From the IMG/VR virus record IMGVR_UViG_2737471833_000010, positions 1 through 27,813 of that record: DNA of 27,813 bases; one strand, 5' to 3'. Origin of the DNA: a virus (Duplodnaviria > Heunggongvirae > Uroviricota > Caudoviricetes). A program made the translations under genes and the position numbers. This document shows, in pieces, positions 6,778-7,761 of the stretch (within the stretch, counting starts at the first letter, position 1; each line of letters begins with the position of its first letter). The notes under the pieces are model-generated. The model was not told where the DNA came from. It did not search any database and worked only from the letters and a program-made list of their open reading frames with translations.

Positions 6778-6843
6778 CGTAGATTCATGTTTGAATCGTT
6801 GTATATTCACCGCCATGGTGAGTAATGCGTCCTGCTGATGACG

Positions 6844-6876
6844 ATAATAATGAACCAATAGTTCGACATTATCAAG
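6844..6876 (-). promoter_or_regulatory. Candidate pL promoter (minus strand: -35 TTGATA, 17-nt spacer, -10 CATTAT) within palindromic OL-like region
   Basis: Hexamers are rc of plus 6870-6875 and 6847-6852. Overlapped by the 9-bp inverted repeat CCAATAGTT(13 nt)AACTATTGG at 6855-6885. The assignment is inferential. Confidence 0.25.
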
Positions 6877-7059
6877 AACTATTGGTACGAATTTTGGTGA
6901 TTTATTAACTCTACGAAGTATGATTCTGATATATAAGGAAATTTATTTTTGAAAATGTGGCTGATGAAGGTTATGCGGCAGGGATCAGAACTGCATGGTT
7001 TAGCGATTTACATCAATAAATACAATTGGTTATGTGTTTTTTTTGGGCGAGAGGCAAAG

Positions 7060-7085
7060 AAAACCCGGCGCTGAGGCCGGGTTAT
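7060..7085 (-). terminator. Intrinsic terminator ending the cI-side (leftward) immunity transcript
   Basis: Minus-strand stem CCCGGC ctcagc GCCGGG followed by TTTTCTTTGCC. Confidence 0.55.
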
Positions 7086-7092
7086 GTAGGCA

Positions 7093-7194
7093 TTATGCGG
7101 CTTTTTTGGTGTGTGCTGACGAGCGAGCCAGAATCTCGTTAATGAGAGATCTCAGGGTCATTGCATCTTTGTGCAGAGTGGACATGGTTTTCAT
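7093..7194 (-). CDS. Micro-ORF (33 aa) between the rex-position gene and the terminator
   Basis: GAGGAA lies 5 nt upstream of the ATG (7192-7194). Product MKTMSTLHKDAMTLRSLINEILARSSAHTKKAA. Could be a leader peptide or spurious. Confidence 0.25.
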   Translation of the reverse strand: MKTMSTLHKDAMTLRSLINEILARSSAHTKKAA

Positions 7195-7263
7195 TGCGTT
7201 TCCTCGGTTTATTTTATGGTACTAGCCTAGTTCAAATAGACTATATGAAATCTTGATTTACTA

Positions 7264-7644
7264 TTAAGGCCATTGGGTTGGTGGAAGATCGTGGGTTTTT
7301 ATCTGCGTATTTGCTTCCACACATTTATCATAGTCTAATTTCTCTACAGCAAGCAATAGTGATTCAGCATACATCAATCCTTGTTTGATGTTCATAACAT
7401 TTATGCTTGCACTTGCGGCATCCATATCCTTTGCTGTCTCTACCATGTGCTCAAAGCTTTGAGCAATAGAGTCAACACCGTTTTTCATCCTTGTAAACAC
7501 TAATTTTAGCTCATCAAGGCTTGGATTCGTTAGATCATACATCCCATGCATTCCATGGGCTTCGAATAACTCTGACAACGATCTAAGGGCGAAGTTCACA
7601 GAATCAATAACTTGGTCGTACTTTTTCTTATCAAGATCATTCAT
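7264..7644 (-). CDS. Hypothetical protein (126 aa) at the rex position downstream of cI
   Basis: Intact ORF MNDLDKKKYDQVIDSVNFALRSLSELFEAHG... in a markedly AT-rich block. Same orientation as cI. Predicted helical, no recognisable motif. Confidence 0.55.
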   Translation of the reverse strand: MNDLDKKKYDQVIDSVNFALRSLSELFEAHGMHGMYDLTNPSLDELKLVFTRMKNGVDSIAQSFEHMVETAKDMDAASASINVMNIKQGLMYAESLLLAVEKLDYDKCVEANTQIKTHDLPPTQWP

Positions 7645-7761
7645 TAAAAATATAACCTTTTAACTATTTGATATTGCTGCATTTATATCAATATATGTAT
7701 TTCACATATATCACCCAAACGTCTCTTCAGGTCACTGGCTATCAGCTATGTGACGATAAAG

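Follow-up and report, generated by a model that had tools for sequence, protein, structure and literature searches.

The tailed-phage record IMGVR_UViG_2737471833_000010 (Caudoviricetes; 27,813 nucleotides, hereafter the window) carries a two-gene cassette downstream of its cI repressor gene. It comprises a gene for a 126-residue protein, a micro-gene for a 33-residue peptide, and a terminator. The segment 7086-7710 is a self-contained, horizontally mobile unit residing in the cI-to-N hotspot. The explanation that best accommodates the data is a lysogen-expressed, mobile protein-peptide cassette with an anti-phage role. We hold this reading tentatively, at a probability of about 0.4. An earlier note, made from the sequence of the window alone, had described the block as horizontally exchanged cargo in the rex slot, co-oriented with cI. 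This cargo reading is strongly supported by comparative analysis, in which the cassette replaces rexAB behind lambda cI and the stk module behind 933W-type cI.

The composition of the block is unusual, as the note had recognized. At 7086-7722 the G+C fraction is 0.377. The whole window averages 0.487, cI has 0.458 and N 0.49, and just 0.3% of 637-bp segments in the whole stretch are equally AT-rich. The stretch 7645-7722, ahead of the larger gene, has a G+C fraction of 0.23.

The setting of the cassette is clearest in comparison with Stx phage 933W, whose immunity frame the window shares. From the N gene through nutL and the operators OL1 and OL2 to the terminator (6600-7081), the window matches 933W and related phages at 97% identity, and identity returns at cI, which equals 933W cI in length and position. 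Annotated records of the region equivalent to 6600-7081 name nutL, OL1, OL2, and a ‘tM; putative terminator for pM transcript’. Both OL1 (6851-6866) and OL2 (6873-6888) are identical to their 933W counterparts, as are OR3 and OR2, and OR1 is present at 8518-8532. Between cI and tM, 933W has L0084-L0083-stk-L0081; in the window, the 126-aa and 33-aa genes fill this interval. The divergence begins exactly beyond a fossil of the lambda cI 3′ end, which lies directly past the 933W-type cI stop both in the window and in 933W (L001 ~6570-6600; ..SQWPEETFG*). In the window, the fossil at 7741-7711 reads ..AGCCAGTGACCTGAAGAGACGTTTGGGTGA, with the tryptophan codon changed to a stop.

Homology to the E. 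coli cassettes has its upstream limit at 7741. Downstream, 933W homology ends at 7081 and homology to E. coli cassettes with other N and OL types begins at 7040-7048; the terminator is therefore a shared joint. The cargo interval is bounded by the joint sequences ..GAAGAGACGTTTGGGTRA and AACCCGGC..GCCGGGTTTTC. These alignments indicate that the 933W cargo was replaced by the cassette via exchange between the lambda-cI fossil and the tM terminator, and the fossil has the appearance of a conserved linker through which cargo passes from one immunity type to another. At this one site, 933W, lambda-immunity prophages, HK97, and the window have common flanks and unlike cargo.

The limits of the cargo can be redrawn accordingly. 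The earlier note had placed it at 6840-7761. Cargo-specific DNA is confined to 7086-7710, because 6840-7059 is the phage’s own 933W-type pL/OL region and not acquired DNA. The spacer between cI and the larger gene (7645-7761) does measure 117 bp as noted, but about 31 bp of it (7711-7741) is cI fossil, which leaves a true leader of 66 bp. Likewise, the terminator described as the cassette’s own has a stem of eight pairs (7083-7062; six of them G-C) followed by a T-run, and is at the same time the tM of the 933W PRM operon.

Beyond the window, the cassette is found at diverse sites, with an apparent preference for those expressed in lysogens. Of 5426 complete E. coli genomes, 32 contain a copy at ~99% identity over at least 80% of the query, and the protein cluster at 100% identity spans at least 1000 contigs. 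The ~99%-identical E. coli cassettes stand downstream of four repressor types, including lambda cI, and relatives stand downstream of eight more, giving a total of 12 types at 90% clustering with the window included. A repressor with helix-turn-helix (HTH) and S24 domains lies directly upstream and co-oriented in 25 of 32 IMG/VR loci. L004 and L005, two lambda-immunity prophages, carry the cassette in the place of rexAB, beginning 66 bp past the stop of a genuine lambda cI gene. Half of the repressor types (6/12) belong to a clade with Proteus-phage-like flanks, in which the large protein is just 36-37% identical. The slot is the same in this clade, since an N-like gene comes next.

Other relatives lie outside the cI-to-N interval. 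In a P22-like Pectobacterium prophage, the cassette is downstream of mnt, opposite arc-ant, which we take to be the sieA site on the P22 map. Klebsiella and related genomes carry it at a prophage or island border adjoining yejM, and at prophage ends in Klebsiella and Aeromonas it adjoins tail-fibre genes. Phage AsXd-1 of Aeromonas and prophages related to it have the cassette flanked by int/dinI-like genes on one side and convergent tail-fibre genes on the other. No relative came up in a motif scan of 100,044 species-representative genomes.

Genes of the slot also appear in other combinations. A DUF3024 protein is encoded first past cI in 933W (L0084, L001 6223-6564) and in a Proteus-like prophage (L041 3357-3698), where its gene stands ahead of a cassette homologue. 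The occurrence of the same family in the first slot position of both suggests, therefore, that slot cargo genes are shuffled individually across genera.

The larger gene encodes an intact 126-aa helical protein, as the note had stated. With a diverse alignment, AlphaFold predicts a four-helix bundle (helices 3-36, 43-71, 74-101, and 105-117) at a predicted local distance difference test score (pLDDT) of 90.4 and a predicted template modelling score (pTM) of 0.82; with a shallow alignment, the pLDDT is only 68. The family is small: among 1.84 billion representatives, it accounts for 23 clusters at 90% identity and 18 at 50%. Its proteins have 109-134 residues in almost every case, three being shorter fragments. 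Named members belong to the Enterobacterales, and the Aeromonas phage relative was found separately. Conserved motifs are G(M/I)xG(M/L)..(T/I)NPS.(D/E).L, NIKQGL.(Y/F)AE.LL, D...C, and a C-terminal W. The earlier statement that the protein has no recognizable motif also stands: profile and fold searches returned no informative match, and no homologue among known regulators or structural proteins was found. A profile search of PDB sequences gave nothing under an E-value of 0.02, and a literature search on its accession gave no match. Neither product has a membrane segment, the maximum 19-residue hydropathy being at most 1.2.

Some observations on the family concern annotation. Truncated homologues (73-75 aa; P0021-P0023) were considered as signs of decay; the one checked (P0023, L049 2345-2722) is a start-codon miscall with an intact 125-aa ORF. 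One source labels the family member P0012 ‘rhamnose utilization protein RhaD’, for which neither sequence nor model offers support, and the label is probably an annotation transfer error. The four-helix Hha-TomB (YbaJ/YmoB) system was also compared, and the resemblance proved generic (hhalign probability 0.9%; no PF10757 match); unlike in that system, the partner in the cassette is a cysteine-free 33-aa peptide and not an Hha-like protein.

The micro-gene accompanies the larger gene throughout. We scanned 37 loci by script (32 from IMG/VR and five others). Every one has a 33-36-aa open reading frame (ORF) 25-88 nt past the large gene, preceded by a Shine-Dalgarno sequence, down to 36% identity of the large protein, and a terminator 8-30 nt beyond it. 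The ribosome-binding site that the note had judged good is a GAGGA 6 nt ahead of the ATG. Among six divergent 33-codon copies, the proportion of synonymous differences (pS) is 0.57-1.0 and that of nonsynonymous differences (pN) 0.14-0.40; their ratio of 0.24-0.55 is without saturation correction, and synonymous sites are near saturation. The pattern of substitution and co-occurrence indicates that the micro-ORF is a real, selected gene, inherited inseparably with the large gene. It is unannotated by RefSeq (PGAP) in the three E. coli genomes inspected (L003, L004, L005), and is annotated in the AsXd-1 GenBank record and in some metagenome gene calls.

Features of the two products are complementary. 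The peptide follows the pattern L..(D/S)A(M/L).L(R/K).LI(N/D)(D/E).L with a basic tail, and always ends in (K/Q/R)-K-(A/V)-A, which is K-K-A-A in the window. In the six pairs examined, the large protein is acidic (net charge -8 to -11, isoelectric point (pI) 4.6-4.8) and the micro-protein basic (net +2 to +6, pI 9.7-10.5), so the charges are opposite in six of six. Translation signals are likewise uneven. In nine of nine divergent loci, the large gene has a weakly pairing Shine-Dalgarno sequence (-0.7 to -4.1 kcal/mol; mean -3.0), and that of the peptide pairs strongly (-5.9 to -8.8 kcal/mol; mean -7.5). Because of the strict co-inheritance and opposite charges, the acidic bundle protein and the basic amphipathic peptide probably act jointly as a protein-peptide complex, although with less assurance than we attach to their shared transcription, considered below.

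Transcription of the cassette with cI from PRM in the lysogen, ending at tM, is likely, since no terminator intervenes between cI and the cassette and since rexAB, 933W stk, and 434 hex provide precedents. The terminator at 7083-7062 is the sole one on the minus strand from OR to OL. The earlier note had instead raised the possibility that inverted repeats in the spacer form an independent promoter-operator, such that the leader 7645-7710 would express the cassette by itself and not from PRM. Both repeats exist, one base away from where they had been placed (7668-7674/7685-7691 and 7691-7698/7704-7711). Two or more occur in just ~1% of dinucleotide shuffles of 7645-7722, a modest and post-hoc excess. 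There is a promoter-like site, TTGATA-17-AATAGT (7691-7663), the leader moves together with the E. coli cassette, and relatives outside immunity regions need some promoter. Nevertheless, the site matches at only 9/12 positions, the six promoter-like hits in the region compare with a shuffle expectation of 4.7 +/- 2.8, and the predicted start would give a leader of only ~12 nt. The leader contains no 933W cI operator, its closest match having at least 6 mismatches in 15. The sequence and repeats are missing from all more distant relatives, and conservation of the repeats is uninformative because all copies that carry them are ~99% identical. On this basis, an internal promoter is possible but not supported, and a leader acting independently of PRM seems doubtful.

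The case for an anti-phage function begins with position. Accessory genes on the PRM transcript are common to many lambdoid phages, and RexAB of lambda excludes T4 rII. Such genes are mostly exclusion functions, as for rexAB, 933W stk, and 434 hex (PMC3564112). The Stk protein of 933W is co-transcribed with cI and aborts HK97 infection, and Hex of 434 excludes P22 and also damps induction (PMC3564112). The bstA gene is another occupant of the slot, in a cI-N region recognized as a mosaic hotspot (PMC8585504). Given this operon position, it is plausible that the pair protects the lysogen from other phages by exclusion or abortive infection, though we rate this function at somewhat below even odds.

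A working mechanism can be outlined from the strong ribosome-binding site and the conserved K-K-A-A, which suggest a restraining peptide of high flux and low stability. The peptide would be made in excess owing to its ribosome-binding site. It would be short-lived, since its C-terminal K-K-A-A resembles a ClpXP degron; strong C-terminal degrons of this protease are marked above all by an Ala-Ala end, and they tolerate positive charge (PMC10862746). It would hold the bundle protein inactive until an infecting phage stops host synthesis or titrates the peptide. This logic fits both abortive infection and toxin-antitoxin behavior. The scheme as a whole is unlikely to be right in every step. Similarly speculative is its extension to a new, as yet undescribed two-component prophage immunity module, in which a heavily translated, ClpXP-labile micro-protein would restrain a bundle effector that is freed on infection, and which would have colonized rex, sieA/mnt, and prophage-end slots across Enterobacterales and Aeromonas.

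Several points weigh against an anti-phage role. A hotspot position implicates the cassette by association only, and 434 Hex also modulates induction. Searches of Pfam, NCBIfam, and PADLOC gave no match for either product, defence, toxin, and antitoxin families included. In PHROGs, the larger protein matches phrog_16322, a family of unknown function, over its full length (residues 1-126 of 126; E-value 8e-89). Its best fold matches are de novo designed proteins, the fold being a generic helical bundle. With neither a catalytic motif nor a membrane segment, it has no obvious effector activity. With regard to the peptide, an Ala-Ala end by itself is insufficient for degradation (PMC10862746). 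For exclusion in particular, the PADLOC, Pfam, NCBIfam, and fold searches provide no support and no evidence against.

Other functions would account for parts of the same evidence. The cassette could be a toxin-antitoxin-like addiction module, with a stable 126-aa toxin and an abundant, labile 33-aa antidote that would stabilize the prophage or island and not serve in phage defence. Wherever it occurs, sites outside prophage cores included, it forms a compact bicistron closed by a terminator of its own; the weak Shine-Dalgarno of the first gene, the strong one of the second, the degron-like AA of the peptide, and the opposite charges would all suit such a pair. Type II systems also consist of adjacent small genes that are always co-inherited, and the cassette resembles those of reverse order (higBA, mqsRA, hicAB type) in being a small bicistron whose translation signals favor the second, smaller product, which may be labile. 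Unlike these systems, the cassette has no recognized toxin or antitoxin fold or family (no such domain in Pfam, NCBIfam, or PADLOC). With its 33 residues, the partner cannot accommodate a DNA-binding domain and has none for autoregulation, and the bundle protein lacks enzymatic or membrane-active features. In addition, the family, with the 18 clusters at 50% identity noted above, is rare, unlike successful toxin-antitoxin families. We regard an addiction role as quite improbable.

A lysogenic-conversion factor has better prospects than an addiction module, though it too is unlikely. The target would be a host protein such as a protease, adaptor, or regulator, bound and modulated by the acidic bundle (alone or with the peptide), and not a phage. 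The cassette occupies moron positions of the sort typical of conversion genes, beside dinI-like and tail-fibre genes at prophage ends, and a degron-tailed peptide could conceivably compete at a protease. Least probable of all is a regulator of the prophage’s own lysogeny or induction, resembling 434 Hex in blocking RecA-stimulated repressor cleavage. The operon position is that of hex, Hex lowers spontaneous induction (PMC3564112), and a DinI-like gene adjoins the cassette in Aeromonas prophages. Against this, there is no similarity to DinI or any RecA-interacting family, and copies of the cassette lie behind mnt or, remote from any repressor, at prophage ends. As it occurs at these sites and behind 12 unrelated repressor types, it is not matched to one repressor. 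Protection of the lysogen from other phages remains the reading we prefer.

Comparison with characterized occupants of the slot clarifies what is new. RexB is a polytopic membrane protein and RexA has ~280 residues. The lambda rexA-rexB pair occupies the identical slot, with two genes co-oriented with cI and a terminator before OL/pL. In contrast, the cassette products are small, soluble, and free of membrane segments, one being a 33-aa peptide, and no homologue match to RexAB was obtained in PADLOC, Pfam, or PHROGs. The closest relationship of the frame is to the 933W stk module, with which cI, OR, the lambda-cI fossil joint, tM, OL1/OL2, nutL, and N are common at ~97% or better; the window appears to be, in effect, a 933W immunity region with swapped cargo. 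The genes themselves differ and are far shorter (0.6 kb versus ~2.1 kb of cargo), and no kinase domain is encoded (no Pkinase match). The hex gene of 434 and bstA of Salmonella BTP1 share the slot and presumed PRM co-transcription (PMC3564112; PMC8585504), but encode single proteins unrelated in sequence to the cassette products.

The cassette therefore represents a new gene family in an already known kind of slot, and is a compact experimental target. The PRM repressor transcript is among the few phage messages made in every lysogen, and the extra genes it carries (rexAB, stk, hex, bstA) have repeatedly proved to be anti-phage, with unusual mechanisms. At ~0.7 kb, the cassette is compact and portable, and has no relative of known function. 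Should it act in phage exclusion or as a peptide-controlled toxin, prophage immunity would gain a new protein family and a form of control based on a micro-protein. Even with neither role, the cassette shows how cargo is swapped in Stx-type and lambda-type immunity regions, namely between a pair of short conserved joints. The features of the locus are summarized in Table 1.

Table 1. Features of the window from the cI repressor gene to the N gene, listed in the direction of transcription.
Feature	Coordinates	Strand	Remarks
cI repressor, 933W immunity type, HTH + S24 peptidase	7762-8469	minus	235 aa; first gene of the PRM operon containing the cassette
Lambda cI 3′-end fossil (..SQ*PEETFG*), apparent conserved upstream recombination joint of the cargo slot	7711-7741	minus	Alignment with L004/L005 and 933W
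AT-rich leader, 66 bp	7645-7710	minus	Two inverted repeats and a weak promoter-like site
126-aa acidic soluble protein, predicted four-helix bundle (WP_021539111.1, phrog_16322)	7264-7644	minus	Weak Shine-Dalgarno
Intergenic region, 69 nt	7195-7263	minus	Promoter-like site 7267-7240; no significant structure
33-aa basic micro-protein, predicted amphipathic helix, C-terminal KKAA	7093-7194	minus	Strong Shine-Dalgarno; no RefSeq annotation
Intrinsic terminator closing the cassette, equivalent of tM (933W PRM operon), downstream joint	7060-7085	minus	
933W-type pL/OL region and non-coding DNA common to 933W, not cargo	6840-7059	minus	OL1, OL2, pL-like hexamers 6875-6847
N gene	6214-6597	minus	Beyond the non-coding DNA past the terminator

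Nucleic-acid elements within the cassette were also considered. The 126-aa gene includes an 18-bp perfect palindrome, TGCTCAAAGCTTTGAGCA, at 7448-7465, which is unique in the 27.8-kb window (~0.1 expected). It was rejected as a DNA element, being imperfect in a Pectobacterium copy that encodes the identical peptide and not conserved where the protein sequence is, and the cassette palindromes give no evidence of an aba-like DNA self-immunity element. RNA structure in the intergenic region 7195-7263 is without significance (z = 0.5). Several relatives do have a G+C-rich hairpin at this place, between large gene and micro-ORF, that resembles a partial terminator and is sometimes followed by a U-run (L011 4385-4455, L012 5379-5450, L031 4379-4456, L007 4379-4462, L013 5379-5461).

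The wider window is that of a mosaic, lambda-like prophage. The early and late-regulatory regions within 1-19200 resemble HK97 and CUS-3 (94-97% identity over ~38%), and the immunity region is of 933W type. HK97 itself carries a different cargo, gp49 and gp48, in its cI-N slot (L052 5595-6499).

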